Origin: Candidatus Tayloriibacteriota bacterium | Lineage (GTDB): Bacteria > Patescibacteriota > Minisyncoccia > Phycocordibacterales > PALSA-1337 | Direction: 5' to 3' | DNA: 63,618 nucleotides | NCBI GenBank assembly: GCA_037130865.1 | Contig: JBAXSG010000003.1 | Span: 1 to 63,618, forward strand | Shown here: piece by piece, positions 225 to 61,982 of the stretch | Layout of the letters: every line of letters starts with the position of its first letter | How positions within the stretch are numbered: the stretch's first letter is position 1 | Notes under the pieces: generated by a model | The model's database searches: none | What the model saw: only the letters and a program-made list of their open reading frames with translations | What the model was told of the DNA's origin: nothing | Translations under genes and position numbers: made by a program

Positions 225-682
225 CATGTTATCAATGATTACTCATTGCATTGGACTATAGCTTCACCAAAACGATTAAACAATTCAACAATGGAACTAT
301 TTAACTATTTAGGCTGTCGATGTTTAGTCTCTACGGGCTGATTACTAGCTTGCGCCAATGATCATTCCCTCGGTATTATCCCTTACAGGATTCCACCGAT
401 ATAAATCGACTTGTTCACAATGTTTCGCGTTGTGATGATGCGCCTTGCGCCTTTCACCTTGCACTTAACTTTGTGACCGCCGTGATATGATTGTTCTTTC
501 CTTTCTATTTTCATTAGACATACTAAGACTCTTCGCCAGATTTTACTCTGGCAAAAATTTCTCTCGAAGTGATTCAGACTGTCGAACATTCAATGTTCTC
601 GAGTCCAATGTTGCTTCACACATTTTTCACACCTGTTCGATGTGATTCGATATCTTACATTGGTCATTCCATTGATTGCTCA
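225..682 (-). other. 458-nt insertion in 23S rRNA at the E. coli-equivalent position 2593/2594; candidate group I intron without an intact endonuclease ORF
   Basis: GCTGGGTTCAGACCGT (rc 683-698) and CGTGAGACAGGTTGG (rc 210-224) are contiguous in other bacterial 23S rRNAs but are separated here. The upstream exon ends in U and the insert ends in G, as at group I splice sites. Only a 68-aa ORF (383..589) lies inside. Confidence 0.55.
437..464 (-). repeat. Copy of the dispersed GC-rich GCGCAAGGTGAAAG-type repeat, inside the 23S insertion
   Basis: rc of 437-464 reads GTGCAAGGTGAAAGGCGCAAGGCGCATC, near-identical to the copies at 7158-7184 and 7614-7640. Confidence 0.6.
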
Positions 683-714
<32 letters not shown>

Positions 715-2089
715 TTGGCGAACAGCCAAACCTTTGGGAGCTTCTCCACCCCCAGGATGTGGTGAGCCGACATCGAGGTGCCGAACTCCGCCGTCGATAT
801 GAACTCTTAGGCGGAACTAGCCTGTTATCCCTAGAGTAGCTTTTATCCGATAATCTTCCCCAGCATCTAATGCCTAGGGTCGGTTCGCTTGGCTCTGCTT
901 TCGCATCTGCTCGACACGTACGTCTTGCAGTCAATCCAGCTTGTGCCCATACACTATCGCCATGGTTTCCATTCACGGCTAGCTGAACTTAATAGGCTCC
1001 TCCGTTACCATTTAGGAGGATAGCGCCCCACTAAAACTGTCCACCAGATACTGTCTCCCGCCGTTTATGCCGGCGAGGTTAGAATATACATTTTTAAAGA
1101 ATGGTGTTTCATCGACGGATCCATCTACCCCAAAAGGTAAACTTCAAATCCTACCATCTACGCTACGCATCAAAAACGTATAGTCAATATCAAGTTACAG
1201 TAAAGCTTCTAGGGTCTTTTCGTCTAACTGTAGGTAACCGGCATCTTCACCGGTATTGTATTTTCACCGAGCTGGTCTCCGAGACAGTTCTCCAGTCATT
1301 ACACTATTCAACGCGTCGGAACTTACCCGACAAGGAATTGCGCTACCTTAGGATCGTTATAGTTACGACCGACATTCACGAGGGCTTATAACAGTCACCA
1401 TGTAATCTTGCGACCACACAACGCCGTTATTTGACCTTCTCGCATTGGTCAAGTGTCACCCCCTATACATTCTCTTACGAGTTCGCAGGGAGCTGTGTTT
1501 TTGTTAAACAGTTGCCAGAGATACTTTCGCTGAGGCCCATATTGCTATGGGCAAGCCTTATTCCGAAGTTACGGCTGCTTTTTTGCCGAGTTCCTTGGAG
1601 ACCACTCACTCGTTCGCCTTGGTCTACTCGACCTGATCACCTGTGTCGGTTTGCGGTACGGTTTGCATGAACATAATTTTAGAAGATTTTCTTGAAAGCG
1701 TGCTTTGTTCTTTCCCTCTTTTTACGGAAGTCACGGAATAGCTTGGGGGCGGCATTGAAGCCAGGATCCGGATTTGCCAAGACCCACCCTTACTACCACG
1801 ACGTCAAATCCAATAATGCGCAGAACATACTACACTTCGTCCCTCCATCAATCTTCATGCAAGTTATGGAATATTAACCATATGTCCATCGGGTGCGGCG
1901 TTTGCCATCCCCTTAGGACCGACTAACCCTTGGCTGATATACATTGCCAAGGAAACCTTGATCTTTCGGCGTGCAGGATTCTCACCTGCATTGCGGTTAC
2001 TTGTGCCAACATTCTTACTTCGCAGCGCTCCAGTGTGGGTCACCCCTTCACCTTCATCGCAGTGCGAATACTCTCCTACCGCTTGTGCG

Positions 2090-2649
2090 CTTCATTGTGG
2101 AGGCGAATCGTATAGACTCGCCTTTGTTGTGGCAAGAAATCACTCTTGCCAACGGAACTGTGAAAGTTTTTACTAATCAAAAACTTTCGAAAAAATGGTC
2201 AGAAGGGAGGGTTTTGGACCCACACCTAGATAGTGAGCATTTAACAGCTGGTAGTTTTCGTTTCACCCCGTTTGTGATCTTCTCAAACCAGCCGTCCCGG
2301 ATAATACATACCGATTCTCACTTACCTTAAGTAAGGTCACCCGACCTTCCCCCTGATCAGAACTTAAAACTAGAGCTAGAGATGGGGAGCTGCGTCTACA
2401 TTCCGCACTGGCTCCCGATTTTCGTTCAGCACAGGCCGAACCGCGAAAGGTGTACGCCGGCAGACCGCATTATCAATGTCGCAGTTGCCGCTTCGCCCCG
2501 CTTGAAAAGCCTCGTCATTGGACATCTCATCAGCCGACCGCCATGGAGGATCGACCGAATCTTGCCTTAACGAGCACCCCACGCTCACAAAGAACTAATG
2601 CGAGATGAATATCTCGCTAAATTTGATTTATTTACTTTCCACAATGAAG
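2090..2649 (-). other. 560-nt intervening sequence replacing the loop of 23S helix 45
   Basis: The native helix GCTTGTGCG / CACACAAGC (2081-2089 / 2650-2658) is extended by the perfect inverted repeat CTTCATTGTGG / CCACAATGAAG (2090-2100 / 2639-2649), which closes the insert. Flanking sequence matches the helix-45 region (ACCGAAACTGAGGG...GGTAGGAGAGTATTC in rRNA sense). The interior holds many local hairpins and a GC-rich core at 2380-2580. Confidence 0.6.
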
Positions 2650-3341
2650 CACACAAGCCCTCAGTTTCGGTACAACGTTTGAGCCCCGATTATCTGCGGC
2701 GCGAAATTTCTCGATGAGTAAGCTGTTACGCTATTTTTGAATGGTGGCTGCTTCTAAGCCTACATCCTCATTGTCATAGAAATTTCACTACCTTAAGCGC
2801 ACTTAACGTTGATTTAGGGACCTTAAATAGAGATCTTGGGCTGTTTCCCTTTTGTCCAATGGAGCTTAGCCCCCACAGACTAACTGCTAGATAATGACTT
2901 ATTGTATTCGGAGTTTGATAGGTGTCGTGAGATTTCTCCCGTTCGAAACCTTCCAGTGCTCTACCCCAATAAGGTACATCTAACGCGAACCCAAAAGTTC
3001 TTTCGGAGAGAACCAGCTATTACCGAATTCGATTAGCTTATCACTCCTTACCACACGTCATCCGATAGTTTTGCACGGCTAAACGGTTCGGGCCTCCATC
3101 AGCCTTTCGGCTAACTTCACCCTGCGCGTGGCAAGCTCATCCGGCTTCGGGTCTTATGTATACTACAAACGCCCTATTCAGACTTGGTTTCCCTGTGACT
3201 CCGGACTCTCGTCCTTAGTCAGCAGCATACATAAACTCGTTGGCTCATTCTTCAATAGGCACGCCGTGACGGATATAAATACCCGCTCCGACTCCTTGTA
3301 GGCATATGGTTTCAGATCTATTTCACCGCCCTTCCGGGCTG

Positions 3342-3381
<40 letters not shown>

Positions 3382-4281
3382 TAGAAAAATATTTAGACTT
3401 GCCAGTTAGTTCTGGCAGATTCCCCCGAGCTTTTCGTGTCCCGGGGTACTTAAGAATAGAGACAAAGAAGGTTTTTTGTTTTCGCATACGGGACTATCAC
3501 CCACTAGGGTCGATCTTTCCAGATCATTCTGCTAACAAAAAACTTTTTGACTTCTCTGCTATAAATAGCACGTCTCTACCTTGCAACCCTCAACCAAATA
3601 AATGGTTAAGTTTAGTCTTCTCCGCTTTCGCTCGCCGCTACTTACGGAATGCATGTTTGTTTATCTTCCTCCTGGTACTGAAATGTTTTACTTCCCAGGG
3701 TACGCTCCTATTACAAAATAATAGGCAATACGAGTTCGTCGTATTAGGTTTCCCCGTTCGGAGATCTTCGGATCAAAGGTTGCTAGGCACCTCCCCGAAG
3801 CATATCGCTGCCACGCCACGTCCTTCATCGCTTTTTCTAGCCAAGGCATCCACCATACGCCCTTATATTTCCCATTAGGAAATCTAAGAACCGCTTGTTA
3901 CTTACCTACATTACTTACTTTACAAAGTCATATAAAAACCAAATACATCCACCGCTGGGTTTCATCGGTTTAAAATGACTTATCTAACTTGAAGTATGAA
4001 ATTTTCAAACAACAATCGTTCTGAAAAGAAAAACCGCTTCATTGAGCGGCTACAGGTCACGCTCCATCTCTGGAGTGTGGCTATGGCCGCGCTGTTGAGG
4101 GGTAATTCATATAATTCATTCCGTGCGCATAAGTATACTTGTAGCCATAAAAATGTCAAGGGTTTTTGCTGGTTGGCCAATATGGGGATAAGCTGGGGAG
4201 AAATAAGGAGTGCAGGCGAGGCAAATTTTGAACAAAATCTGATTATTTTTTGAACGTTTCTTGAACTTTTCTTTATCGAAA

Positions 4282-6667: not shown

Positions 6668-7156
6668 ATGTCTCGTACAAAAATACAAAAGAAAGAGATC
6701 ATTGAGAAACTCTCAAAGATTATGGATGGTGCTAAGTCTATCGTCTTCGTGAACTTTCATGGTCTCAAAGTCTTAGATGCTACAACAATGCGCCGCGCCA
6801 TGAGAAAAGATGGTGTCAGCTATTTTGTCGCCAAGAAATCTTTGACTGCGCGTGCTCTTGCTGAGAAGAAGTACTCTGGAACAATGCCAGAACTTGTCGG
6901 TGAATCTGGTATCGCCTACAGTACAGATTTGATAGCGCCTGCGCGCAATGTCTACGAATTTCAAAAGAAATTCAAGGACCAAGTCAGTATCATAGGTGGA
7001 GTGTTCGATGGTGCATATATGGATAAAGCCGGTATGATATCGATCGCTTCGATACCTTCACTCGACACTCTCCGTGGTATGTTCGTCAATGTCATCAATT
7101 CCCCTATACAAGGATTTGTCATGGCGTTAGACCAGATTGCTAAGAAGAATAAATAA
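6668..7156 (+). CDS. rplJ: 50S ribosomal protein L10
   Basis: 162 aa, L10-like sequence, immediately upstream of rplL. Confidence 0.9.
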   Translation: MSRTKIQKKEIIEKLSKIMDGAKSIVFVNFHGLKVLDATTMRRAMRKDGVSYFVAKKSLTARALAEKKYSGTMPELVGESGIAYSTDLIAPARNVYEFQKKFKDQVSIIGGVFDGAYMDKAGMISIASIPSLDTLRGMFVNVINSPIQGFVMALDQIAKKNK

Positions 7157-7157
7157 G

Positions 7158-7184
7158 GCGCAAGGTGAAAGGCGCAAAGCGCAA
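7158..7184 (+). repeat. GC-rich dispersed repeat directly after the rplJ stop codon
   Basis: GCGCAAGGTGAAAGGCGCAAAGCGCAA, identical to 7614-7640. 7-nt periodicity (GGCGCAA-like units). Confidence 0.8.
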
Positions 7185-7221
7185 TTAACCACAATTAAAA
7201 AATTAACTAATAAATAAAAAC

Positions 7222-7608
7222 ATGGAAAATACAACTGTTGAAATCCCTGCAAAGTTCAAGACACTTGTCGAAACAATCGAGAAGATGTCAGTCCTAGACT
7301 TAAACGAGCTCGTCAAATTACTCGAAAAGAAATTCGGTGTCTCAGCCGCAGCTGTTGCTGTCGCTGCTGCTCCTATTGCCGCCGCTGGTGAAGAGAAGAG
7401 CACATTTGCTGTTCACTTGGCCGCTATTGGTGAGCAGAAGATCGCTGTCATCAAGGTCGTCAAGGAAGTTTTGGCCCTTGGTCTCAAGGAAGCCAAAGAC
7501 CTCGTCGATGCTGCTCCTTCCCTCCTTAAGGATGGTATGAAGAAAGAAGAGGCTGATGCTTTCAAGAAGCAAATCGAGGCCGCTGGTGGTAAGGTCGAGT
7601 TGAAATAA
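7222..7608 (+). CDS. rplL: 50S ribosomal protein L7/L12
   Basis: 128 aa. Ala-rich hinge [18 protein letters not shown] and C-terminal [19 protein letters not shown]...AGGKVELK. Confidence 0.95.
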
Positions 7609-7613
7609 ATAAA

Positions 7614-7640
7614 GCGCAAGGTGAAAGGCGCAAAGCGCAA
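7614..7640 (+). repeat. GC-rich dispersed repeat directly after the rplL stop codon
   Basis: 27-nt copy identical to 7158-7184. The preceding AATAAATAA(G/A) context is also shared. Confidence 0.8.
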
Positions 7641-7663
7641 GTAATCGTAAAGTGTGCGAAAAA

Positions 7664-11523: not shown

Positions 11524-11568
11524 AAAATATGGTTGATTATTATTAATACAGCCATAATAAAACACCAA

Positions 11569-11618
11569 GATAAAATCCTGGTGAAAAAGTTATGAAGAAA
11601 TGCTCAAAAAGTTCTCAA
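11569..11618 (-). promoter_or_regulatory. 50-nt conserved intergenic motif (copy 1), putative promoter
   Basis: GATAAAATCCTGGTGAAAAAGTTATGAAGAAATGCTCAAAAAGTTCTCAA is ~90% identical to 22408-22457. In minus orientation it reads TTGAGA-N18-CATAAC, 45-95 nt upstream of the 11523 start. Confidence 0.4.
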
Positions 11619-11823
11619 CTTTTGTTCAAGACAAGAATTGCTCAGGGTTTGTATTGCCCAACAAAATATATGATCACAAAACTGATGAATAAAATAAATA
11701 CAAAACCAATCAGGAACTTGAAGAATGTTCTATCAAAAGGGTTTTTCATATCTATATTCTATCAAAAAATCGTCCTCTCTGTTTGCCTTTGGAGATCTCA
11801 TCTTATTCCTATCAGACCAAAAC

Positions 11824-22215: not shown

Positions 22216-22407
22216 AGTTTTTTGCAGTCAGTGCTCCGCTTAAAATAAATCTGCGGAATCCTTCTCTACTGTAGAATGGCCTTATTAAGCCATATATACA
22301 ACAAATCAGGAACTTACTGCGATTACTTGTAATGCCATGAGATTAACACAAAACTTCATCCTCTGCAATGGTTTTAATGAGAGGACCACAATATCATAAA
22401 CCTTAGA

Positions 22408-22457
22408 GATAAAATCCAGATGAAAAAGTTATGAAGAAATGCTAAAGAAATTCTCAA
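22408..22457 (-). promoter_or_regulatory. 50-nt conserved intergenic motif (copy 2), putative promoter upstream of rpsF
   Basis: GATAAAATCCAGATGAAAAAGTTATGAAGAAATGCTAAAGAAATTCTCAA has 45/50 identity to 11569-11618. Confidence 0.4.
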
Positions 22458-22502
22458 ATATCGCTCAAAAATACATAAAAAGACTTTGGAGAGCTCCGCC
22501 GA

Positions 22503-31240: not shown

Positions 31241-34200
31241 TAGTTCAACTTGATCTTCATAGCAATATCCCCAATCTTTAACGCCTCGCCGCTGACATTT
31301 TCACCTGCAACACTCCCCCATTCAATACCTTTCAACAAAGTCGCACGAGATATTGTATCTTTGTTCTTTTCGATAAATTTGTGGCCAACTTCATCAGTTT
31401 CAACAACGATAGTAGCTTTGTCATCTATAGTGAGGCCTTTTTCTTTGCGAAGATCCTGAATAGCACGGATGAGTTCACGAACCATCCCCTCTTCTTTGAG
31501 CTCCGCAGTCATAGTGACATCTAGTTCAACACTCAATCCAACTGTATCTTGCGCCTCGAATATAACTTCTTTTACATTTACTTCGTCCGCGATAATCGAA
31601 ATCAGATCTTTAGTTAAAACTCCTTGTTTCTTATCTTTTAATGACTTGACCTTGAGAGACTGCAGCGGCTGACGAACATTTATCTTGGCAGACATGCGAG
31701 CTTCGAGACCTTGAGAAGCTATTGTACGCACAAGTTTCATGTCAGCAAGTAGTTCTCCGTCTGTCTTTGTAAGTTTGTCCGCGGTTGGCCATGACTCCAG
31801 ATGTACACTTTCGAGACTTCCAGCTACGATTCCACCACCAACTCTGTTATATATATCCTCTGCAACAAAAGGCATAAATGGTGCCATTATTTTAGCAGTC
31901 TCCATAAGCACAAACTTTGTGGTCTCAAGAGCCGCATTTTTCTCAACCAAATCTTCGGCCTTGAAACGATCGCGTGAGCGACGCAGATACCAAGTAGAAA
32001 GATCGTCCACAAGATCCATAAATGGACGTGCGGCGCGATCCAGCTCACCAGCTTCCAATCCGGCAGTAACTTGGGCAATGGTCTCATTTAGACGCACGAT
32101 AATCCAGAGATCGAGGACATTCTTGCTTGCGCTTTGCGATCCACTTTCCCCTTGCGCCTTGCGCCTTTCCCCTTCATTCCCATACATTTCATAAAATGAA
32201 ACTACATTGAGTAGACGGTTGATTACCTTCTTCGTCACTTCGTCTACACCCTTCTCACTGAAGCACAGGTCTTGTGAATGGACGACTGGTGAAGACATGA
32301 GGTAATATCGGAGCGCATCGGCGCTATATTTCTCTACGATTAACATCGGATCGGGATAATTCTGTTTCGACTTCGACATCTTCTCACCATCTTCGGCAAG
32401 GACCATACCATTTACCAAAACTTTCTTGTATGGAGACGTGCCAAACAAAGCCACTCCAAGTACGAGCATACTGTAGAACCAACCACGTGTCTGATCTTGT
32501 CCTTCAGCTATAAAATCAGCTGGGTAAGCCCTGGATCTACGGAATAATCCGCCTAGTACATTACTTCGAGGATCAAACTTCTTGATATCACCAAATGGAT
32601 AATGATTCGATGCCCATGGCATAGCACCGGATTCGAACCAACAATCGAAGACATCTGAAACACGCGTAAGTTTATTGCCATTTTCTGTACGCAATTCTAT
32701 CTCATCGATGAAAGGACGATGTAGGTCGAGCTCATAGTTGGAGTTGTGAGGAAGTGGAATGAAATCAAGTGCACGGAACTCGGCATTATTTAGATAATTA
32801 TCTTTTTCATATTCAACTGTTTCCATATCACTAAAGCCACGACAGACAGCTGTTAAAACAGTCGCAGGACCACCATGAGTAACTATAAGAATAGTCTTGC
32901 CGGAATATTTACTTTCCATGTCATACATAAATTCACCGATACGCTTCCTAATATCAGAATAATTCTCACCAGATTTTGGACCTTTCGTAAAAGCATCTTC
33001 GGTATGGAATTCCTTGCCGAAATCCTCGACTAGCTTGCCCTCCCATTCACCCATAGCCCTCTCATGCAGACGATTGTCCGTGACTATCGATATTTTCTGG
33101 CCCAATCCACGCAAACCAAGACCATCAGCAACTATTTTAGCGGTCTCTTGTGTCCTCATAAATGGCGAAGCAACAATCGTATCTATGCCAAACTTCTTGA
33201 TTGAAGCTGCAGACTTTTTTACTTGTTCTCTACCAACTGCTGTAAGATGATTCGTCTTTTGTGGATCGCCATTCAAAGTCCCGACGACATTTCCCTCTGA
33301 CTGACCATGTCTCATGACATAGTAAGTATTTTTTGCTTTTGAATATTTCTTAATGTCGGCGAGCGAACCAATAATATGCAGCTCACTTGCGCCTTGCGTC
33401 TTGCGCCCTTCCCCTTCTTCGCGCCATACCGGAATCGGAGCGCCCCAAAAACGAGAACGAGATATAGCCCAGTCGCGAGCACCTTCCAACCAATTACCAA
33501 ATCTACCAGAACCAACTTCCTCTGGAACCCAAGATATTTTTTTATTTACTTTGACCAACTTTTCTTTTATGGCTGTGACTTTCACAAACCAAGAAGAAGA
33601 GGCGTAATTGATAAGCGGAGTCTCACAGCGCCAACAATGCGGATATGAGTGCACCAGCTTCTCTTTTTCAAAGAGTTTTCCGCTGTGTGCCAACCATTTT
33701 ATAACTTCAATATCGGCGTTCTGATGCGCATTTTTATCTTCTGGGGTATCTTTCGGCTTCACATGTTGTCCAGCGAAGTCTGTCACCTCTTTTTTGAATG
33801 TACCATCTACAGCCACATGTTGGACAAATGGCAGGTCATACTTCTTGAGCAAGTCGTAATCATCTGCACCAAATGCCGGAGCAATATGCACGATACCAGT
33901 ACCATCTTCAGTGGTTACGAAATCCGCCGCGTAAATCTTCCAGCCATTTTGAGCATTTTTTAGCCCTTTATCGCCAGCACCGCTGGAATTGCGAGAATAA
34001 TAATCAAATAGTGGCTCATACGAAAGTCCGACGAGATCAGATCCGTGGATTTTCTCGACTATCTCATACGGCTTATCTTTAAATGTCGCAGCTAGTCGTG
34101 ATTCCGCGACTATATAAGTCTCACTAGCTGAACCTATTGGTGTATTTTCCGTAGCAACCAGATGAACTTTTACATAGTCGATTTTCGGATTCACCGCCAG

Positions 34201-34929
34201 AGCTACATTCCCTGGCAATGTCCACGGCGTCGTCGTCCAAGCAATCAAGTAGGTTGCGCCCCGCGCTTCACTTTCGCCTTGCGCCTTGCGCTCTGCGCCT
34301 TCATTAACCTTAAACTTCACATAGACAGAAATATCCGTGATGTCTCTGTATCCCTGCGCTACCTCGAAGTTCGAAAGTGTAGTCTCACAACGAGGACAAA
34401 GATTCATGGACTTGAATCCTTCATAGATCAAACCTTTGTCATACAAATTTTTGAATATCCACCAAACGCTTTCAGTGTAAGACGAGTCCATGGTGCGATA
34501 GTCATGATTCATATCCACGAAACGACCGAGACGTGGTATGACCTTGCGCCATTCGTCTGCGTAACGCATAACGCTTCCACGTGCGGTCTCATTGAATTTT
34601 CCAATACCAAAATCTAGAATATCTTTTTTCGACTTTAGTCCCAACTCTTTTTCAATAAGATTTTCCACTGGTAGACCATGACAATCCCAACCCCAACGAC
34701 GCGCCACGTGATAGCCTTGCATGGTTTTGTAGCGAGGTATGACATCTTTCATCGTGCCAGCCAATAAATGGCCGTAGTGCGGCGTACCAGTAGCAAATGG
34801 GGGCCCGTCATAGAAGGTAAATTCGCCCTTCGGTGCCTTCTTCTCCAGCGTCTTTTCAAAAATACCCTTCTCTTTCCAGAAGGACAATATTCGCTCTTCG
34901 CGGTCGCTATGCGTACTCATGATGAGCAT
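31240..34929 (-). CDS. ileS: Isoleucine--tRNA ligase carrying an inserted histidine-phosphatase domain and three short repeat-derived insertions
   Basis: 1229 aa. HIGH-type PHYGHLLAG, WAISRSRFWGAPIPVW, DCWFESGAMPWA, KMSKS. See the separate domain and repeat features. Confidence 0.93.
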   Translation of the reverse strand: MLIMSTHSDREERILSFWKEKGIFEKTLEKKAPKGEFTFYDGPPFATGTPHYGHLLAGTMKDVIPRYKTMQGYHVARRWGWDCHGLPVENLIEKELGLKSKKDILDFGIGKFNETARGSVMRYADEWRKVIPRLGRFVDMNHDYRTMDSSYTESVWWIFKNLYDKGLIYEGFKSMNLCPRCETTLSNFEVAQGYRDITDISVYVKFKVNEGAERKAQGESEARGATYLIAWTTTPWTLPGNVALAVNPKIDYVKVHLVATENTPIGSASETYIVAESRLAATFKDKPYEIVEKIHGSDLVGLSYEPLFDYYSRNSSGAGDKGLKNAQNGWKIYAADFVTTEDGTGIVHIAPAFGADDYDLLKKYDLPFVQHVAVDGTFKKEVTDFAGQHVKPKDTPEDKNAHQNADIEVIKWLAHSGKLFEKEKLVHSYPHCWRCETPLINYASSSWFVKVTAIKEKLVKVNKKISWVPEEVGSGRFGNWLEGARDWAISRSRFWGAPIPVWREEGEGRKTQGASELHIIGSLADIKKYSKAKNTYYVMRHGQSEGNVVGTLNGDPQKTNHLTAVGREQVKKSAASIKKFGIDTIVASPFMRTQETAKIVADGLGLRGLGQKISIVTDNRLHERAMGEWEGKLVEDFGKEFHTEDAFTKGPKSGENYSDIRKRIGEFMYDMESKYSGKTILIVTHGGPATVLTAVCRGFSDMETVEYEKDNYLNNAEFRALDFIPLPHNSNYELDLHRPFIDEIELRTENGNKLTRVSDVFDCWFESGAMPWASNHYPFGDIKKFDPRSNVLGGLFRRSRAYPADFIAEGQDQTRGWFYSMLVLGVALFGTSPYKKVLVNGMVLAEDGEKMSKSKQNYPDPMLIVEKYSADALRYYLMSSPVVHSQDLCFSEKGVDEVTKKVINRLLNVVSFYEMYGNEGERRKAQGESGSQSASKNVLDLWIIVRLNETIAQVTAGLEAGELDRAARPFMDLVDDLSTWYLRRSRDRFKAEDLVEKNAALETTKFVLMETAKIMAPFMPFVAEDIYNRVGGGIVAGSLESVHLESWPTADKLTKTDGELLADMKLVRTIASQGLEARMSAKINVRQPLQSLKVKSLKDKKQGVLTKDLISIIADEVNVKEVIFEAQDTVGLSVELDVTMTAELKEEGMVRELIRAIQDLRKEKGLTIDDKATIVVETDEVGHKFIEKNKDTISRATLLKGIEWGSVAGENVSGEALKIGDIAMKIKLN
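32121..32176 (-). repeat. GC-rich dispersed repeat inserted in frame in ileS (encodes NEGERRKAQGESGSQSAS)
   Basis: rc reads GAAGGGGAAAGGCGCAAGGCGCAAGGGGAAAGTGGATCGCAAAGCGCAAGC. 7-nt periodicity, and it shares the GCGCAAGGNGAAAG core with 7158-7184. Confidence 0.7.
32755..33327 (-). other. Histidine phosphatase (phosphoglycerate-mutase-like) domain embedded in IleRS (about aa 535-725)
   Basis: YYVMRHGQSEGN (RHG catalytic motif), ASPFMRTQETA, ERAMGEWEG, ILIVTHGGPA (second His). Flanked by the IleRS segments IGSLADIKKYS and ELDLHRPFIDEI. Confidence 0.75.
33384..33425 (-). repeat. GC-rich dispersed repeat inserted in frame in ileS (encodes REEGEGRKTQGASE)
   Basis: rc reads GGCGCGAAGAAGGGGAAGGGCGCAAGACGCAAGGCGCAAGTG. 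Confidence 0.6.
34252..34305 (-). repeat. GC-rich dispersed repeat inserted in frame in ileS (encodes NEGAERKAQGESEARGAT)
   Basis: rc reads AATGAAGGCGCAGAGCGCAAGGCGCAAGGCGAAAGTGAAGCGCGGGGCGCAACC. Confidence 0.65.
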
Positions 34930-43330: not shown

Positions 43331-43644
43331 GTTTTTGATGATTTTGTTTAATGTCGTGGCGCCAGCCCTGCGGCGGCGATTTCTATTAAAAAACCCCTGC
43401 TGGGGTGGTTACGATGAGTATAGTAGCACGAATTGGATAAAAAGCAAATAACTTAAAAATCAACAAAAATACCGTCTTCATGACAGTACTTTTGTTATGC
43501 CTGCTTTCGGCTTAGGAATTCCTTAGCTGAACGGGGCTTACGCCCACAGGCATAATCACAGTATACCAGATCTTGTTTCTAATAGTAATTTCTACTGACG
43601 ATTATTAGCCACAAAATCTCTCCTGAGGTATGGGTACCTACTTT

Positions 43645-43812
43645 AAAACAGCCTTTTAGAAATAATCTATCCACGAGGTACCTAAGCTTAAGCTACACAT
43701 AGGCAACTGTTTAATTGTGACTATTCCGTGCTAATAAACCCAGTAATATATAGGGAGTACCTCGGCTATAAATTATTTCTAAAAGGCTGTTTTGGAGGTG
43801 GGTGTGTCCCGG
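43645..43812 (-). repeat. Hairpin element copy A (MITE-like or structured RNA), directly 3' of the DGR template repeat
   Basis: 22-bp perfect arms AAAACAGCCTTTTAGAAATAAT (43645-43666) / ATTATTTCTAAAAGGCTGTTTT (43772-43793). Inner stem CGAGGTAC / GTACCTCG. ~80% identical to the inverted copy at 61506-61665, including the flank GGA(G/A)GTG..TGTGTCCCG. Confidence 0.8.
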
Positions 43813-43922
43813 CGGCACTCTTGCCGTTTCGGACCGCTTAAATTACCTTTAGATCGATAACGCAATCCATAAACAAAACTCCCTCGAACTGGATATACCC
43901 AGACGAAGGAGAAATGAAAAGA

Positions 43923-44055
43923 TTTGCGGAGAGCGAAGACCCAGTGGTTGTCGCCATTCCAAGACTTGCGAGGCTTCGCGGTGTTCGTGTTCAGCTTGAG
44001 CTCGGCACCATTCCGGTTCAGGTTGAAGACGTTCGGGTTGCCATCACGGTCATTA
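43923..44055 (-). repeat. DGR template repeat (TR)
   Basis: 133-nt ungapped match to 44401-44533. All 18 mismatches are T on the plus strand here (A on the minus/sense strand). Not inside a credible CDS. Confidence 0.9.
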
Positions 44056-44300
44056 TGTATAGGATGCCATCCATGCCACCACCCTTAGAAACCGCACAAT
44101 GGCGATGATCTCGGGGTTGAATCGAATTTGGTATCATAATACCCTAGCATCTATACCAAGTATCTTCATTTTTTGAAGTGTCTACATAAGCCCTCCGTCT
44201 GAAGCCGTAACCGCAGACGCTCTCAGCTTATGGATACTGGATTCGGTAGCCGGAAGCCTTGACCGCCGGCATATTCACCTACTACCACGACTAGTATAAC

Positions 44301-44325
44301 AAAACTGCGCGCCAAAGGCGCGCAG
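44301..44325 (-). terminator. GC-rich hairpin plus T-run downstream of the DGR target gene and VR
   Basis: CTGCGCGCC-AAA-GGCGCGCAG (44305-44325). On the minus strand it is followed by TTTT. It lies ~75 nt 3' of the VR end. Confidence 0.6.
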
Positions 44326-44397
44326 TTAAGAGCAAAGTTCAAAGTGTCAAAGTGCAAAAATGCAAGAACAAAGTGACTGAAGGACTAAGTACTGAAG

Positions 44398-46248
44398 CTA
44401 CTTGCGGAGAGCGAAGACCCAGCGGTAGCCGCCATCCCAAGACCTGCGAGGCTCCGCGGTGCTCGTGTGCAGCCGGAGCTCGGCACCAACCCGGTACAGG
44501 TAGAAGACGTGCGGGTAGCCAGCACGGTCATTAATAGGCTTCATTCCAATAAATGTCCAATCTGATATGGAAGTAACAAGTCTTAATCTTGGTCCAACTT
44601 CCGGAGAACATAATTCCAAACCCATTTCCTCTGCTCTCTTGTAAATCTCCTCTGTAGTCGCGGTATCTGAAAATCCCATATCTTTGACCGTAAGTCTCAC
44701 AAGGTCGACCTGTTCAGTATTCTCCGAAGTTTGGAAATCTCTACTGTCCATCAAATATTTTGCATATGAATAAACCTGGATATTTTTCTCTTTGAGCTCT
44801 TTTTTAAGATTATCTTTCGATTTTCCGCCAATTTCGATATTATATTTCTGGATTTTTCCTTCTGGAAATGAGGTGTAAATGTGCTCGAGGCCACGCTTGA
44901 AGACGCCTGGGAAAAGTTTGCCTATGTAGGCTTTGGTGTTTTCTTTTACATCTTCTGGTGTAACAGCGATCTGGTCTGAAGAACATCCAAGCACGATTGG
45001 CGCGTCTTCTTTTGGATTACGGGTTTTTCTCAACTCAGTAATGCGAGGATCTCTATCGTAACCGAGGCCTTCGATAGTAGCCTCGATTTCGTAAAGGAAA
45101 ATAAGGTCGTCTTTTGTAAATTGTTCACTCTTTTCTTGTTTCTTCGTAAGCTCCGTCATTTTCTTCATATCCGCCGACTTCTTATCGAACTTTTCCCCAC
45201 CTGGCAATGAATGATATTTCTCTGTGGCAACATCTACCAGAGCTGGTTCAAGTTCTTGACGATGATTGACACCCCGGACCTCGGCAACGCTGTCGCCTTC
45301 CATCCTGATGGCAATTCTAGGCTCAGAATAGACGCCCGATTTACCACGAGTGAAATATACCCAGAAATCACCACCTTGGAGATGAGCAGGCGCACTTCCC
45401 TCAGCAGTACACCAACCTGTACCTTTGCCATGCAAAGAATCCTCCAGTTTGTGATAATCCGAACCTTGAGGATATTTCACCCATTCACCTTGAAGCGATT
45501 CACGGTTGAGTGCGCCAGCCGTTTCTATCTGGGCAAATGTGTAGAGTTTTATGAAATCTTTCTTTTCAATAAGATTGGCTAGTTGTTCGCGCCTATCCGG
45601 AGTATTGATGAATTCTTGATGTCCAATACCAGTGGTAAGCATACGGTATACGAAGCCTAGTGCTTCCGAGTTTACTTCAGGAAACGGAGCTATCGTATAG
45701 TCAGTTCTCTTTCCATATTCACCCTTTTCTTTGTCCAATGCCCCCATCTTCTGTAGATTACGGACCACAAAATACCTGAACCATGTCGGATAATGGCCGT
45801 CATTTTCTTCAAGATAGTCCAGCCATGAACCTAAAGTCTTTTCTTGTATATCGTGCTTTTCCTTGGTAAGTCCTTTGTAACGCTCGATGATACCACCTTG
45901 TTCTCCGAGTTCATCATCTATTCTGGCGACATCATTGCCCCTTCCTTGTTCTATTGCTAGCCGTTTTTCGGATTCATAAAGACCGGTAGCAATCTTAGTC
46001 ATGGTTTCTTCATCATCTGTATCTATAACAAACTCTTTTATGATTTTGTTTTTGAGGAGTTCCCAACCGCGTTCATCCTTCACTATACGGTCAAGCCTAT
46101 CCAGATACGCTTGAATACGCTCAGAACGATCATGTGGAGCGAATTTCCTCTCTGGATCGTGCATAGCTTTTTTTACCGCGCGTTCCACGGGTTTTGATCC
46201 CGGCATGTCTGGATATTTTTTGTCTAAGAATTCAGGTTTTTCTGACAT
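44398..46248 (-). CDS. DGR target protein (variable C-terminus), N-terminal region of unknown function
   Basis: 616-aa ORF. The last 44 codons are the VR. The C-terminal ...RSWDGGYRWVFALRK resembles the ends of CLec-fold DGR variable proteins. Confidence 0.85.
   Translation of the reverse strand: MSEKPEFLDKKYPDMPGSKPVERAVKKAMHDPERKFAPHDRSERIQAYLDRLDRIVKDERGWELLKNKIIKEFVIDTDDEETMTKIATGLYESEKRLAIEQGRGNDVARIDDELGEQGGIIERYKGLTKEKHDIQEKTLGSWLDYLEENDGHYPTWFRYFVVRNLQKMGALDKEKGEYGKRTDYTIAPFPEVNSEALGFVYRMLTTGIGHQEFINTPDRREQLANLIEKKDFIKLYTFAQIETAGALNRESLQGEWVKYPQGSDYHKLEDSLHGKGTGWCTAEGSAPAHLQGGDFWVYFTRGKSGVYSEPRIAIRMEGDSVAEVRGVNHRQELEPALVDVATEKYHSLPGGEKFDKKSADMKKMTELTKKQEKSEQFTKDDLIFLYEIEATIEGLGYDRDPRITELRKTRNPKEDAPIVLGCSSDQIAVTPEDVKENTKAYIGKLFPGVFKRGLEHIYTSFPEGKIQKYNIEIGGKSKDNLKKELKEKNIQVYSYAKYLMDSRDFQTSENTEQVDLVRLTVKDMGFSDTATTEEIYKRAEEMGLELCSPEVGPRLRLVTSISDWTFIGMKPINDRAGYPHVFYLYRVGAELRLHTSTAEPRRSWDGGYRWVFALRK
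44401..44533 (-). repeat. DGR variable repeat (VR)
   Basis: See TR. VR peptide NDRAGYPHVFYLYRVGAELRLHTSTAEPRRSWDGGYRWVFALRK versus the TR-encoded NDRDGNPNVFNLNRNGAELKLNTNTAKPRKSWNGDNHWVFALRK. Confidence 0.9.
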
Positions 46249-56090: not shown

Positions 56091-56519
56091 TTACTTAGCA
56101 GCTTCCTTCTTCTCTTCTGCGACTGGTGCTGCTGGTGCCTCTACTGCCTCTTCTTCATATTTAGCATTCATAGTGCGGCGCATCTGCTTACGAATCTCCT
56201 TGGCAGCCTCTTCACGTACGAAGTAAAGCTTTGCGCGGCGGACCTTGGAACGGCGAACCATTTCGACAGAGTCGATCATAGGAGAATATAGTGGGAATGT
56301 GCGCTCGACACCGATACCATCGATGACTTTGCGTACTGTAAATGTAGCACCTGCTTCTTTACCATGCTTACGTGCCAAAACAAGTCCTTCAAATGCTTGA
56401 AGACGGAATTTACCCTTGGCTTCCTCGATTTTCTGCCAGACACGGACAGTATCACCTGGACGGACGTCCAATTTCTTACGGAAATCTACATTTGCTGGGG
56501 TTATTACCTTGGTTGTCAT
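56091..56519 (-). CDS. rplS: 50S ribosomal protein L19 with an acidic/Ala-rich C-terminal extension
   Basis: 142 aa. [15 protein letters not shown]-type core ([30 protein letters not shown]). Confidence 0.93.
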
Positions 56520-56559
56520 AGTGGGGATAGATTAACACGGTCGCTTGGAAAACTCAAGT

Positions 56560-58371
56560 TTATTTGAATCCGTCGTTGCGACGAGCTTTTGCCTTGTCCA
56601 AAACCGTGAGTAACTTCTTGCGCAAACGCACATTCTTCGGAGTGATTTCTAGATATTCATCACCACGCATAAGTTCCAAACCACGCTCAATATCCAGCTT
56701 GTAAGGCGGTGTCAGAAGCAATGCTTCGTCAGTACCAGATGAGCGCATGTTCGTGAGCTGCTTTCCTTTGCAAGGATTTACTTCCATATCTTCGCCGCGT
56801 GCAACATCACCAACGACCATTCCTTGATAGACTTCAACAGCGGGATCGATAAAAAGTCTTCCACGGTTTTGTAGATTCCAAAGGGAGAATCCGAGCGATT
56901 TTCCGGAAACCATGGAGGTCATTGAGCCAGTCTCGCGCTTTTGGATCTCACCAGCATAAGGACGGAATTCTATGAATCGGCTAGCAAGTATTCCCTCGCC
57001 TTTTGTGTCTATGGTAAATGCATTGCGATAGCCGAGTAATCCGCGAGTTGGAATCTCGAAGAGCATGCGCGTAAGTTTCTCACGAGTCTTCATCTCTGTC
57101 ATAAGAGCTTTGCGCTTGCCGAGCTTTTCTATGACAGCTCCGGAATATTCCTCTGGTATGTCTATTGTCAATTCTTCAAAAGGCTCCATCTTCACAATAC
57201 TGCCATCGGCGGCTTTTTCATCCTTCACGATAACTTCTGGTTGTGAGACTTGTAGTTCATAACCTTCACGACGCATGTTTTCTATGAGAATAGCCACATG
57301 CAATTCACCACGACCATAAACTTTAAAATAATCATTTGCAGAAAAATCAACTTTGAGACCAACGTTGATCTCCAGTTCTTTCTCTAAACGCTCGCGAATC
57401 TGGCGACCAGTGACGAAAGTTCCCTCTTGGCCAGCAAATGGTGAATTGTTCACCAAAAAGTTTAGCGAAATAGTTGGCTCATCGATCTTGATAGCTGGCA
57501 ATGCCTTCGCATCTGTGGAATCAGCTATAGTCTCACCGATATATATGTTCGGTAATCCAGCGATCATGACAATATCGCCAGCAGCAGCTTGTGCTACTTC
57601 AACACGCTTCTTACCTTCGAAAGTGAAAAGTTTGGTTATTTTTCCAGTAAATGTCTCTCCATTTATATCTTTTACAAAAACATTTTGACCATCGCTGATG
57701 ACACCGTCATAAACTCTGCAAACACCGAGACGGCCAAGGAAATTGTCATAACCCAAGTTGAAAACTTGAGCCGCGAGAGGCTTCGTAGCTTGCTCTGGAG
57801 TATTGGCTGGTGATACGTGCTTCAAAATAGTATCAAGCAAAGGTGTAAGGTCTTTGGCTTCATCTTTCAAGTTCATAACAGCAGTTCCTTGACGACCAAT
57901 TGCATAGACGGTAGGAAAATCTATCTGCTTGTCGTGCGCACCAAGTTCCAAGAAAAGTTCCAACACATGTTCATGTGCTAGATTTGGATTGGCGGCTGGC
58001 TTGTCGATTTTGTTAATAATCACTATCGGCTTTAAACCGAGTTCTAGCGACTTCTTCAGCACAAAGCGTGTTTGTGGCATAGGGCCTTCTTGAGCATCCA
58101 CCACGAGGAGCACACAGTCGATAGAACGCAATACACGTTCAACCTCTGAGCCGAAGTCCGCGTGACCTGGAGTGTCAACGATGTTGATCTTTGTACCTTT
58201 GTACATAACCGAAGTATTCTTCGCATATATCGTAATGCCGCGTTCTTGTTCAAGAGCGTTCGAGTCCATGCTCCCTTCATCCGCGTGACCACACTGCGTC
58301 ATAATGGCGTCAGTGAGCGTCGTCTTTCCGTGGTCGACGTGAGCGATGATTGCGATGTTTCGGATTTCCAT
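56560..58371 (-). CDS. typA: Translational GTPase TypA/BipA
   Basis: IRNIAIIAHVDHGKTTLTD, DTPGHADFG, NKIDK. Start taken at MEIRNIA. Confidence 0.95.
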   Translation of the reverse strand: MEIRNIAIIAHVDHGKTTLTDAIMTQCGHADEGSMDSNALEQERGITIYAKNTSVMYKGTKINIVDTPGHADFGSEVERVLRSIDCVLLVVDAQEGPMPQTRFVLKKSLELGLKPIVIINKIDKPAANPNLAHEHVLELFLELGAHDKQIDFPTVYAIGRQGTAVMNLKDEAKDLTPLLDTILKHVSPANTPEQATKPLAAQVFNLGYDNFLGRLGVCRVYDGVISDGQNVFVKDINGETFTGKITKLFTFEGKKRVEVAQAAAGDIVMIAGLPNIYIGETIADSTDAKALPAIKIDEPTISLNFLVNNSPFAGQEGTFVTGRQIRERLEKELEINVGLKVDFSANDYFKVYGRGELHVAILIENMRREGYELQVSQPEVIVKDEKAADGSIVKMEPFEELTIDIPEEYSGAVIEKLGKRKALMTEMKTREKLTRMLFEIPTRGLLGYRNAFTIDTKGEGILASRFIEFRPYAGEIQKRETGSMTSMVSGKSLGFSLWNLQNRGRLFIDPAVEVYQGMVVGDVARGEDMEVNPCKGKQLTNMRSSGTDEALLLTPPYKLDIERGLELMRGDEYLEITPKNVRLRKKLLTVLDKAKARRNDGFK

Positions 58372-58446: not shown

Positions 58447-59412
58447 TCACAGATTTTTGATACACCGCTTCAGTTTCTGTGTATTTCCATGACTCAATAG
58501 ACCAAGATAAGACTGAACAATTTCCGGTTTTTTCGGATTCTCTTCCAACCTATTCAACATTCTCTTCTTTGTAGTTGTGCGTAGCGTCTTATGATCAGGA
58601 AAATGAACCCAGCCAAGGAAATCGATCCCTGAAGCGAGAGTTGTAATGCTCAACTTTTTAGGATGAAGCTGTAAAGCCAAATCGTCTGCCAAGAACTTTT
58701 GAATCATTGGAACGATACCGACTAACCAGTCTTTGTCTGTATTCATAATGACAAAATCATCTGCATAACGGATGTAATATTCCGCTCTTATGGCCTGCTT
58801 CATAAAATGGTCAAACTTATTCATGTAGATATTTACGAGCAGTTGCGATGTGAGATTTCCAAGAGGTAATCCTTTTACTGGTGCGACACCCTTGAAACTT
58901 TGCACCACATTCTGGATGAGCCAAATAACATCTAAATCGACAACATATTTCTCTAATATGTGTATAAGAATATCTTGGTCAATAGAAGCAAAAAACTTTT
59001 TAACATCGCACTTCAAAACCCATAGCGTCTTTGTATGATTTTTACTGGCTACGCGAGAGAAGTGAGTAAATCTTTTCAATGCTCGATGAGTTCCTCGTCT
59101 TTTCCTGCATGAATATGAGTCGTAGATAAATGTAGGATCAAAATACGGATATAATCGACGATAGATCGCGTGTTGAAGCAGTCTATCTCGGACCGAGGCT
59201 TTATGAATATCCCTCTCTTTTGGCTCAAATACTTTGAAATGATGATAGTCGCCATGAGCATATGTCTTATTTCTCAAATCCTCGTGCAATCCAAGAATGT
59301 TATCAGCCAATCTATATTGAAAATCTTGAACATCTTTCTTTTTTCGTTTGCCTTTCAAAAATTCTTTCCAGGCAGCGAGCAAATTATCGGTAGAAATGAT
59401 ATTGTTATACAT
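58447..59412 (-). CDS. DGR-type reverse transcriptase
   Basis: 321 aa. RT motifs include GLPLGNLTSQLLVNIYM (DGR-diagnostic [LIV]GxxxSQ) and IRYADDFVIM (YxDD). No intron-RNA or maturase features. Confidence 0.88.
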   Translation of the reverse strand: MYNNIISTDNLLAAWKEFLKGKRKKKDVQDFQYRLADNILGLHEDLRNKTYAHGDYHHFKVFEPKERDIHKASVRDRLLQHAIYRRLYPYFDPTFIYDSYSCRKRRGTHRALKRFTHFSRVASKNHTKTLWVLKCDVKKFFASIDQDILIHILEKYVVDLDVIWLIQNVVQSFKGVAPVKGLPLGNLTSQLLVNIYMNKFDHFMKQAIRAEYYIRYADDFVIMNTDKDWLVGIVPMIQKFLADDLALQLHPKKLSITTLASGIDFLGWVHFPDHKTLRTTTKKRMLNRLEENPKKPEIVQSYLGLLSHGNTQKLKRCIKNL

Positions 59413-59484
59413 TATTATTGAAGTAATTTAATATTATGACCGAAATAAAAACACAAACCGTTATGACCCCCCCGCTTAGTTCCT

Positions 59485-59844
59485 GTGGTGCTAAAGTTGA
59501 AAGATGCCTACGGCGTTTGGCAAGATTGCCTCTCTAGCTTTCCGAAGGCGCATCGCTTTACTATCGGCTCGAAGATAGACACTCTATTCCTTGACGCTAT
59601 CGAGCATGCATTCGTCGCAAGCTACACGAATGTCGCAGAGAAACAACCGCATATAAATATCAGTATAGTTAAAGTTGATCTGATCAAGCTCCTTCTGCAG
59701 CTAGCTTGGGAAATAAAAGCTATAGACAATAATAGATATATGACCTTATCTGAAAACTTCGCAGAAATAGGAAAAATGCTTGGTGGCTGGAAAAGACAAC
59801 TGATAAACAAAACTCCTGCAGACAAGCCACAGGAGAAACGTTGA
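59485..59844 (+). CDS. avd: Avd-like four-helix-bundle protein (23S rRNA IVS protein family)
   Basis: 119 aa (GTG start). FPKAHRFTIGSKIDTLFLDAIEH..., ...LSENFAEIGKMLGGWKRQL. Divergent from the RT gene with 72 nt between them. Confidence 0.75.
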   Translation: MVLKLKDAYGVWQDCLSSFPKAHRFTIGSKIDTLFLDAIEHAFVASYTNVAEKQPHINISIVKVDLIKLLLQLAWEIKAIDNNRYMTLSENFAEIGKMLGGWKRQLINKTPADKPQEKR

Positions 59845-60335
59845 TAGTAGCGAACGGCCAGGAAGCGATAGTTGGAGTTCCAATCATTGTCCCACCAACT
59901 GAGGTTGAGGCCCCGCGCCGAGCTGCCCCCGAACAAGTACGGGACATGGCGGAAGACATAGACCCTGCCAACGGAGCCGAGAGCAATGATCGGATTGCTG
60001 CGTTGTGCGTCGGGGTTCAATTTTCCGAACACAAGCAAATGAGCCAACCGGGCCGGCATCCACGGGTTGTTTGCGTCATCGCCCTTCATGCGTTCAATTG
60101 CATCAGGTGACGACACCGAACCCTTCGGATCCCAGAGATTGTATTCCCATTCACCGCCATCTTCGGCAGTGATCGGAAACCGTTTCTCCGTGATGTCGTC
60201 GTCGAACCAGTTGTTGGCGCACTCGGCCAACAGGGTTTTGAAGCCTTTGGTCGGATCGACGAGCATGGTGTTATTGTCCATGGTCAGTCCTTTCTTTGAA
60301 ACGGCTTTGGGGCCGGCTGTTTGTTTTGGCATCAA
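59845..60335 (-). CDS. Candidate second DGR target (small, GC-rich, CLec/DUF1566-like C-terminus), possibly degenerate
   Basis: The ORF 60335..59622 has an expected end near 59850: ...FGGSSARGLNLSWWDNDWNSNYRFLAVRY resembles the target-1 end (..WVFALRK). No stop codon follows, so the frame runs 220 nt antisense into avd. The segment is clearly GC-richer than its flanks. Confidence 0.45.
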
Positions 60336-60487
60336 TCCGCCACAGCAGAGAAAAGCCCATGAATTGAGCTACTTTCTGCTATGGTGAATCTGCCAATAAC
60401 TTTTATTCGCAAGATTGTGAAGATCTGAAACTGTGTATATTATACACCTATAAATACCCATTTGTCAAGGAAAAGTGTATGAAACGG

Positions 60488-61425: not shown

Positions 61426-61505
61426 CATTTAATACTTATTCAGGTTGATGAGGTTTTGTCCTCATTGGGGGCTTTTTCATTTTAGGCTAGTAAAGGGTGT
61501 GATCG

Positions 61506-61665
61506 GGACACATACACTTCCAAAACAGCACTTTTGAAATAATTTACAGCCGAGGTACCGCCTATATATTACTAGGTTTATTGGCACAGAATAGTCACTG
61601 TCATCGAGCTGATTATGTGTGGCTTAAGCTGAGGTACCTCGTGGATAAATTATTTTAAAAACCCT
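61506..61665 (+). repeat. Hairpin element copy B (inverted relative to copy A)
   Basis: CGGGACACATACACTTCCAAAACAGCACTTTTGAAATAATTTACAGCCGAGGTACC...GGTACCTCGTGGATAAATTATTTT. The outer right arm is degraded and overlaps the last codons of the chorismate mutase gene. Confidence 0.75.
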
Positions 61666-61982
61666 TTTTTAAAGTGCATGCTCACCCCTCGTCGCCAAAC
61701 GACGCCCTGCACATCTCTCGAATCCTTGAATATGTGCCTAAAGATTTTTCTCACAAGATCTGCGCTTACGCCGACTTTTTTAGCTAGATCAGCTTTCTTC
61801 TCCAGAATCTCCCGTTCCCTTTCTGGTTGATATATCTTGAGGCCATTTTCTTTTTTATATTTTCCAATCACAGCCGAACAATCGCGCCGCTTGGCCAAAA
61901 GCTCAACTATTTCAATGTCGATCTTATCTATTTCTTTGCGTGATTTTTCCAGTTTCATTTTCAGTTTCATTTTCATTTCCAT
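61650..61982 (-). CDS. Chorismate mutase (AroQ class)
   Basis: 110 aa. LEKSRKEIDKIDIEIVELLAKRRDCSAVIGKYKKENGLKIYQPEREREIL. Confidence 0.8.
   Translation of the reverse strand: MEMKMKLKMKLEKSRKEIDKIDIEIVELLAKRRDCSAVIGKYKKENGLKIYQPEREREILEKKADLAKKVGVSADLVRKIFRHIFKDSRDVQGVVWRRGVSMHFKKGFLK

Follow-up and report, generated by a model that had tools for sequence, protein, structure and literature searches.

A diversity-generating retroelement in split state in a Candidatus Tayloriibacteriota genome, with a predicted template-RNA gene 14.4 kb from the reverse transcriptase and avd genes

The stretch of DNA analysed here (hereafter the window, 63.6 kb) comprises positions 1 to 63,618 of contig JBAXSG010000003.1 in assembly GCA_037130865.1 of a Candidatus Tayloriibacteriota bacterium, and holds the parts of a diversity-generating retroelement (DGR) at two sites. 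At the first (cassette B, 60468..58447), a reverse transcriptase (RT) gene lies beside avd, the gene of a four-helix-bundle accessory protein, and beside a degenerate repeat; at the second (module A, 46248..43869, minus strand), a target gene ends in a variable repeat (VR) and is followed by a template repeat (TR) with its flanking elements (Table 1). The distance from the RT stop to the TR start is 14.4 kb, a span that holds typA, rplS, rnr, DsbA/VKOR and SIMPL genes (Pfam labels) and two tRNAs. An earlier note, made from the sequence without database searches, had described a DGR divided in this way, and had asked whether the RT and Avd act in trans on the distant template or whether another RT lies beyond the window.

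Table 1. Positions in the window of the features of module A and cassette B
Feature	Position	Strand	Remarks
DGR target protein (module A)	44398..46248	-	616 aa; without Pfam domain; family widespread in the Candidate Phyla Radiation (CPR)
VR	44401..44533	-	Final 44 codons of the 616-aa target
CTTNG short-repeat array	44328..44397	-	Directly 3' of VR
Target-gene terminator hairpin	44293..44327	-	Overlaps extended -10-like TGTTATACT
TR-leader RNA, structured	44111..44281	-	171 nt; precedes TR in the DGR clade of this RT
TR, remote template	43923..44055	-	133-nt core repeat with VR
TR-3' hairpin and U-run	43869..43911	-	CTCCTTCG..CGAGGGAG TTTTGTTTAT; clade-typical TR RNA end
Sigma-70-like promoter, TTGACA-18-TATAAT	60439..60468	-	Upstream of 237-aa open reading frame; 12/12, consensus match only
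237-aa open reading frame	59622..60335	-	Small target-like protein fused through hybrid repeat into avd antisense
VR/TR hybrid repeat, single copy	59847..59978	-	Canonical TR position; ends 3 nt past avd stop
TR-3' hairpin and U-run of cassette B	59803..59835	-	CTCCTG..CAGGAG TTTTGTTTAT; inside avd 3' end (terminator scan)
avd, bAvd four-helix-bundle accessory gene	59485..59844	+	119 aa; Pfam bAvd E 7e-14; divergent from RT
RT/avd intergenic region	59413..59484	.	72 nt; homologous to the stub left in L012
DGR-clade reverse transcriptase	58447..59412	-	321 aa, intact; LGNLTSQ and YADD in translation

The reverse transcriptase, avd and the collapsed cassette beside them

The RT open reading frame (ORF) matches Pfam RVT_1 (E 5.9e-28), and its top match among solved structures is 8ub7_A (E 2e-39), which we take to be the DGR RT of Bordetella phage, with retron-type and group II intron RTs at about 1e-18. 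Motif 4 in the form (I/L)GxxxSQ and a YxDD motif, as expected of a DGR RT, are both present. The description of this gene in the earlier note as the only RT of the window, of DGR type by its GNLTSQ and YADD motifs, and of its neighbour as an Avd-like four-helix bundle is borne out by the Pfam matches and by a relaxed tblastn search (four RT and four Avd queries), which detected no further copy or fragment of either gene in the window and no pseudogene fragment of either beside the remote TR. The window thus has one RT and one avd, and neither gene occurs in the 5.5 kb past its end (contig L001), so that a second DGR RT beside the TR, which the note had named as a finding that would overturn its view, was not encountered in the region covered.

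Relatives of the RT were examined in 80 loci (43-78% identity; nearly all from metagenome-assembled genomes (MAGs) of CPR/Patescibacteria), which were scanned for RT, avd and adenine-biased repeats. Most of these RTs adjoin A-biased TR/VR pairs and bAvd, which, together with the best structure match, argues against the placement outside the DGR clade that the note had considered as a ground for rejection. The relatives share a recurring layout, in which a target ending in its VR on the RT strand is followed by a 300-450-nt spacer, the TR, a hairpin with U-run, a reversed avd, about 70 nt, and the RT; avd is convergent with the TR, which abuts the avd 3' end. The B3 'TR-(avd)-RT' architecture accounts for 90% of CPR DGRs, with TRs usually directly adjacent to the RT and co-transcription of TR and RT not required (Wu et al. 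2018, PMC5758913), and CPR-type DGRs have been assigned to RT clade 2 (Roux et al. 2021, PMC8144416). Two traits of the locus once taken as anomalies are therefore ordinary: avd is reversed in most of the 80 relatives as it is in B3, and the space between RT and avd, 72 nt in the window, lacks a TR in the B3 layout of the relatives as well. The promoters of both genes presumably lie in this intergenic region. Overall, the element is a DGR of known clade and known basic architecture, in a split state.

Strong purifying selection acts on RT and avd between two lineages. The second lineage is represented on the RT side by L108, a 37-kb ENA scaffold that is syntenic between rluD and typA and encodes an RT 93% identical and an Avd 98% identical to those of the window; dN/dS (the ratio of nonsynonymous to synonymous substitution rates) is 0.077 for the RT and 0.012 at dS 0.61 for avd, and dS for the two genes ranges over 0.44-0.61.

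Contrary to the view that this RT has no TR of its own, a TR-derived repeat does occupy the canonical place by the avd stop, collapsed with a VR. Cassette B agrees with B3 in the reversed avd between TR position and RT and in the repeat at the avd 3' end, and departs from it in having no separate VR and TR with spacer and leader: where relatives have VR, spacer and TR, only one repeat is found, and a second copy is absent from the window. This repeat is GC-rich and CLec-like (..LSWWDNDWNSNYRFLAVRY), and it forms the in-frame end of the 237-aa ORF. When aligned with copy 1 and copy 2 of L108 and the VR of L012, its 5' half is VR-like and its 3' half is A-rich, pristine and TR-like (AAC, AGT, AAT, GAT, AAC, AAC, TAT), with A-to-N variants in the other sequences. 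In the same sense, tblastn aligned residues 23-162 of the ORF to the target plus VR of loci L013, L023 and L017, and residues 116-233 to the TR plus antisense avd of the same loci. There is no stop codon at the end of the repeat, and the ORF continues for 74 codons through avd antisense; target homologues in L012 (2809..3501) and L108 (7819..8457) stop directly after the VR. The simplest reading of this sequence is that VR-TR recombination made the hybrid, with loss of spacer, leader and target stop codon but with RT and avd preserved intact, and that the 237-aa ORF is probably a dead target. The avd-antisense frame in phase with the TR (59622-59846, minus strand) is open in the window and stop-free in many relatives (ORF residues 176-234, tblastn).

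The cassettes of two relatives have deteriorated differently. A paralogous second target copy in L108 is fused to the hairpin and avd, its repeat being fully VR-like with no A-rich TR, while L012 has lost TR and avd by deletion and retains target-VR, part of the spacer, an avd stub and the RT. The cis cassette is hence degenerate in three lineages, in three different ways. L108 also has, upstream of avd, a tandem pair of paralogous small target genes, and it carries, between typA and rplS and directly past rplS, a RhuM-like gene and a LAGLIDADG-like ORF (L108 12944-15639), both of which are missing from the window (56100-56560).

The remote target gene and its predicted template-RNA gene

In module A, TR and VR differ at 18 positions of the 133-nt core, and all 18 (18/18) have A in the TR and another base in the VR, a pattern with a chance probability of about 1e-11 given that the TR is about 25% A. 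The VR lies inside the target coding sequence, at its C-terminus, and the pair is the sole long repeat of DGR character in the window. These observations uphold the earlier view of a TR/VR pair in use some 14.4 kb from the RT, past the housekeeping genes. The expected adjacency of TR and RT is lacking, given that the only repeat within 1 kb of the RT is the partnerless hybrid remnant and that module A contains neither RT nor avd.

The 616-aa target protein had no Pfam and no PDB sequence match, and belongs to a large family with more than 1380 homologues. Our metagenome scan for target relatives covered at least ten loci, so that the census of RT-less modules is small. Homologues in L027, L033, L094, L095 and L112 are DGR targets with TR/VR and an adjacent (avd)-RT; TR/VR with a leader and no RT within 10 kb were found in the window and L097 (counted as one lineage), L092 and L103; and L101, L102, L113 and L114 encode full-length homologues (58-61% identity) with no TR/VR at all in the surrounding ±10 kb. 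The RT-less state thus applies to 3 of about 8 TR-bearing lineages in the family. RT-less modules of target, VR, leader and TR recur across lineages, and the CPR target family, as judged from these sequences, has both DGR-diversified and fixed members.

The remote site is predicted to be a complete TR-RNA gene, made up of a -10 element, a leader, the TR and a terminator hairpin. These elements answer the expectation of the earlier note that a remote TR would need its own promoter and recruitment signal, inasmuch as it has a candidate -10 element and a covarying leader on one side and a 3' hairpin on the other. The -10-like TGTTATACT (44301-44293) lies 12 nt ahead of the leader, and such an element occurs at the equivalent position in L027, L033, L092, L094, L095 and L103; transcription would putatively start from it. 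More broadly, the VR-TR spacers of 8 modules share CTTNG repeats, the target terminator, the -10-like element and a conserved stretch up to the TR.

The leader alignment and the covariance model built from it used 23 relatives and left out both the window and L097. RNAalifold predicted 30 pairs on this alignment, 25 of them (25/30) with compensatory changes; 93.6% of alignment cells are able to pair, vs 70% for shuffled alignments and 35-45% for slid partners, and the covariation score is 0.69 vs 0.26 shuffled and at most 0.15 with slid partners. The model has one match in the window, at the position of the leader on the minus strand (169 bits, E 1.4e-36); the surroundings of the RT, L001 and L108 give no match. 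Among the other loci it matches L097 (163 bits), the RT-less modules L092 and L103, the short contig L099 and the canonical L094, L095 and L112, scores 56 bits on a remnant in the spacer of L012, and finds no match in L101, L102 and L113, which lack TR/VR. Two hairpins with GGUYAHGGCUU loops, a long-range stem and an ACUUGGU box can be discerned in the leader RNA (L013-L052, L092-L095, L103, L112). As for known RNA families, no Rfam family reaches its gathering score over the leader in the window or in eight relatives; the best score is that of RT-9 (RF03080), at 23.3 bits (E 0.31) over 44160-44221 only, against a threshold of 46.1 bits, and an identification of the leader with a known Rfam family was rejected because this sub-threshold resemblance is the sole one. 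That some RT-n motifs belong to DGRs has been put forward as speculation (Weinberg et al. 2017, PMC5737381).

Downstream of the TR, the clade-typical element consists of TCTTTTCATTTCTCC, a hairpin and GGAGTTTTGTTTAT. This last 14-mer occurs twice in the window, after the remote TR and after the cassette-B repeat, where 0.01 occurrences are expected. It was nevertheless rejected as a sign of specific RT-TR co-adaptation, since it is also present in L013 and near-identical clade-wide.

The CTTNG motif that forms the array behind the VR is found at a mean of 2.47 per 110 nt after 66 VRs (L013-L112), vs a background of 0.47. By analogy with BPP-1, the array may be a candidate target-site recognition element, with a role like that of the IMH (initiation of mutagenic homing) site and its cruciform. 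The motifs (ACTTTGA, CCCTTGG and similar) are spaced about 8-11 nt apart and lie 3' of the stop codons of DGR targets.

Past the TR hairpin lies an element of about 185 nt that forms a long hairpin (43628-43812, minus strand), a second copy of which (61497-61680, plus strand) is 83% identical, in opposite orientation, and kept in L108 (6403-6585). It looks like an insertion resembling a miniature inverted-repeat transposable element (MITE), outside the DGR. A role as recruitment signal or recombination scar was rejected because L097 has no copy at the post-TR site; an inversion between the two copies would in any case leave the RT-TR distance unchanged, and the weak resemblance that Rfam gives between the element and a plant miRNA hairpin carries no meaning. 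Three Logan contigs, each from a separate run (L008, L010, L011), all begin at 43550, between the MITE-like element and secE. No repeat as long as 31 nt occurs at this point, and the shared start suggests that strains are polymorphic upstream of it.

A second lineage and continued diversification

The split layout is conserved in a second lineage, with about 90% identical DNA, as the synteny comparison among CPR relatives called for in the earlier note made clear. On the TR side this lineage is represented by L097, a 63-kb JGI contig that reads rnr..SIMPL-target-VR-TR-secE-nusG, and is about 91% identical to the window at the DNA level; neither an RT nor an avd gene occurs within 10 kb of its TR/VR module. 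It shares with the window the RT-less junction TR-hairpin-GGATTGCG..-secE-nusG. Over the 4421 nt that L097 and L108 have in common they are 99.84% identical, and joining them places RT and TR about 17.8 kb apart in this lineage, as a composite of two assemblies and not on a single contig.

The two lineages have retained the same template while their variable repeats have diverged. The TR is identical at 132/132 positions between window and L097, at a target-gene dS of 0.094, whereas the VRs differ at many positions, all of which are TR-adenine positions; every non-A position is identical. Accordingly, dN/dS is 11.4 in the VR vs 0.19 in the remainder of the target gene. A third VR variant is found in P0001, which is 94% identical overall, with differences mainly at TR-adenine codons and, within the VR, only at such codons, so that diversification between related genomes, as expected of a DGR, is seen. 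Because the VRs differ at TR-adenines while the junction is common to both lineages and the TR identical, retrohoming continued after the RT-less arrangement arose. The RNA elements have also kept their pairing: two substitutions in the TR-3' hairpin relative to L097 convert a C-G to a U.G pair and a U.G to a C-G pair, and a C/G swap in helix 1 of the leader leaves it paired.

Elsewhere in the window, a 23S rRNA match at 636-3877 (minus strand) extends over 3242 nt vs 2925 nt in the model, which points to one or more insertions totalling about 300 nt; insertions are frequent in CPR rRNA genes. Short GC-rich direct repeats with TTGCGCC/GCGCAAGG units lie at 7148-7188 and 7604-7644 and at 32127-34305, and a 76-nt repeat of 80% identity occurs at 11554-11629 and 22393-22468.

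Probable supply of the template in trans, and the alternatives

Taking these elements as they stand, RT and Avd would be made from divergent promoters and would bind the separately transcribed module-A TR RNA via its leader and 3' hairpin, which would thus serve as the recognition signals of RT/Avd; they would then synthesise adenine-mutagenised cDNA, and this cDNA would take the place of the VR, which lies 345 nt upstream of the TR. In B3 loci, TR and RT are separated by a terminator hairpin and by an avd gene convergent with the TR, and the TR RNA is for this reason likely a separate transcript there, and probably never co-transcribed with the RT in the B3 clade. If the TR transcript is separate even in canonical loci, then an unlinking by 14 kb would change little mechanistically. 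Moreover, RT and avd have been maintained without a usable cis template in both lineages and would therefore need a substrate, and the remote TR-RNA gene is the only complete one in 69 kb. We give a probability of roughly 0.6 to the use of the remote TR RNA in trans by the RT/Avd at 58447-59844, and consider it very probable that some RT, this or another, serves the remote TR in trans. Between the two options left by the earlier note, the local RT/Avd thus emerges as the best candidate, and an RT elsewhere is retained as a rival.

Under that rival, the remote TR would be served by another, cognate DGR RT/Avd from beyond the window, and the local pair would be the leftover of a dying DGR or an enzyme working on some other template. 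Several observations weigh towards it and against a role for the local pair. The module-A leader shows only about 60-63% identity to the leader type found in the lineage of the local RT (the L012 remnant and L013), vs 75-79% to leaders belonging to more distant RTs, and this greater closeness to distant RT lineages makes another DGR the probable origin of module A. Two RT loci are present in some CPR genomes of the relative set (JBAYJO01, CAIWKF01; L060), cassette B is clearly degenerate, and in L012, the closest genome at 78% RT identity, avd has been deleted and the RT may already be decaying. Since the RT search covered the window and 5.5 kb of the genome beyond it, a second DGR RT/Avd elsewhere could be the true partner. 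A dying element, however, would hardly show purifying selection on RT and avd over dS 0.44-0.61 despite the loss of its cis template, no other RT or avd was found within 69 kb, and the leader core and 3' hairpin are conserved clade-wide, which makes cross-recognition plausible. The closest genome, CAIPWS01, yielded only one RT locus of the clade, although this is weak evidence from an incomplete MAG and a pattern-based scan. Overall, we regard a distant second partner as somewhat unlikely.

The remote TR and VR might instead be a fossil, diversified when an RT adjoined them and inactive now, as the lack of an RT beside them could indicate. The VR consensus is identical across assemblies of the exact strain, with no within-population variation seen, which would fit such a state. 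Yet the RT-less junction is common to the window and L097 while their VRs differ at TR-adenines only, with an identical TR and a third VR variant besides, and pairing in leader and hairpin has been preserved by compensatory changes between the lineages, so that a fossil appears decidedly improbable. The split could, lastly, be an artefact of assembly, either a chimeric join or a repeat collapsed by avd, given that TR/VR repeats commonly break or collapse assemblies and that several contigs end near the VR or the TR. Against this possibility, which the earlier note had also raised, the exact RT protein with the same neighbours is found in five places in ENA, JGI and Logan assemblies made independently, further assemblies match the TR side at 100% identity, and Logan contig L003 reads straight through the hybrid repeat. 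The halves of that repeat differ, VR-like and then TR-like, which fits recombination and not the collapse of near-identical repeats, and a second lineage has the same large-scale layout. Mis-assembly of the RT-TR split is thus very unlikely, to the point of being barely credible.

Supply of the template in trans by a remote gene, as we favour it here, has partial counterparts among known systems. The window shares with CPR-type B3 DGRs the common RT clade, bAvd, a reversed avd, a VR at the 3' end of the target and adenine-only substitutions; cassette B has the B3 layout, and the remote module corresponds to the left half of such a cassette. It differs from them in that the functional TR, with leader and terminator, lies 14.4 kb off, while at the canonical place TR and VR have become one repeat. 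Remote-target DGRs (Treponema, Legionella and others; Wu et al. 2018) likewise have one RT serving a distant locus, but only the VR is remote there and the TR stays beside the RT, whereas in the window the template itself is remote and travels with the target. For the incomplete DGR loci of Thiohalocapsa PB-PSB1, RT and/or TR acting in trans have been proposed (Dore et al. 2024, PMC10907252), and these too are diversified loci without an RT. They belong to RT clade 5 and have undergone transposon-driven rearrangements, and their clearest cases of trans action involve a remote TR beside an RT; in the window, by contrast, the RT-less TR-RNA gene is conserved across lineages and the own template of the paired RT is dead. 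The DGR RNA of BPP-1 consists of the avd 3' end, TR and spacer, with the Rfam RT-10 motif located between TR and brt (Weinberg et al. 2017); that avd-TR-brt can be complemented in trans from plasmids is established for this phage. In both cases structured RNA, presumably required for cDNA synthesis, flanks the TR, and components work, or in the window would work, in trans; the flanking RNA of the window has another structure, namely a 171-nt 5' leader and a 3' terminator hairpin.

Because trans-complementation was already known experimentally, this locus does not overturn the DGR mechanism, but would provide a natural case of a template-RNA gene unlinked from its RT and Avd. The leader and 3' hairpin are likely signals by which an RT finds its template in trans, so that template recognition in CPR DGRs becomes testable, and the arrangement points to a 'TR gene' that is small and portable as a possible design for targeted mutagenesis by engineering. 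More tentatively, and with somewhat more doubt than confidence, CPR DGRs may be modular, with the target and its TR-RNA gene forming an autonomous unit that any compatible RT/Avd can serve. If this were true, such a unit, equipped with promoter, covarying leader and terminator, would be able to survive, relocate or be gained in the absence of an RT, and the window would represent two DGRs that have degenerated in complementary ways and now form a single split system. The DGR detection of Roux et al. 2021 asks for one repeat no further than 1 kb from the RT, and RT-anchored surveys with this rule therefore miss RT-distant modules of template and target by design; on the modular interpretation, the number of DGR-diversified genes in CPR would be substantially undercounted.

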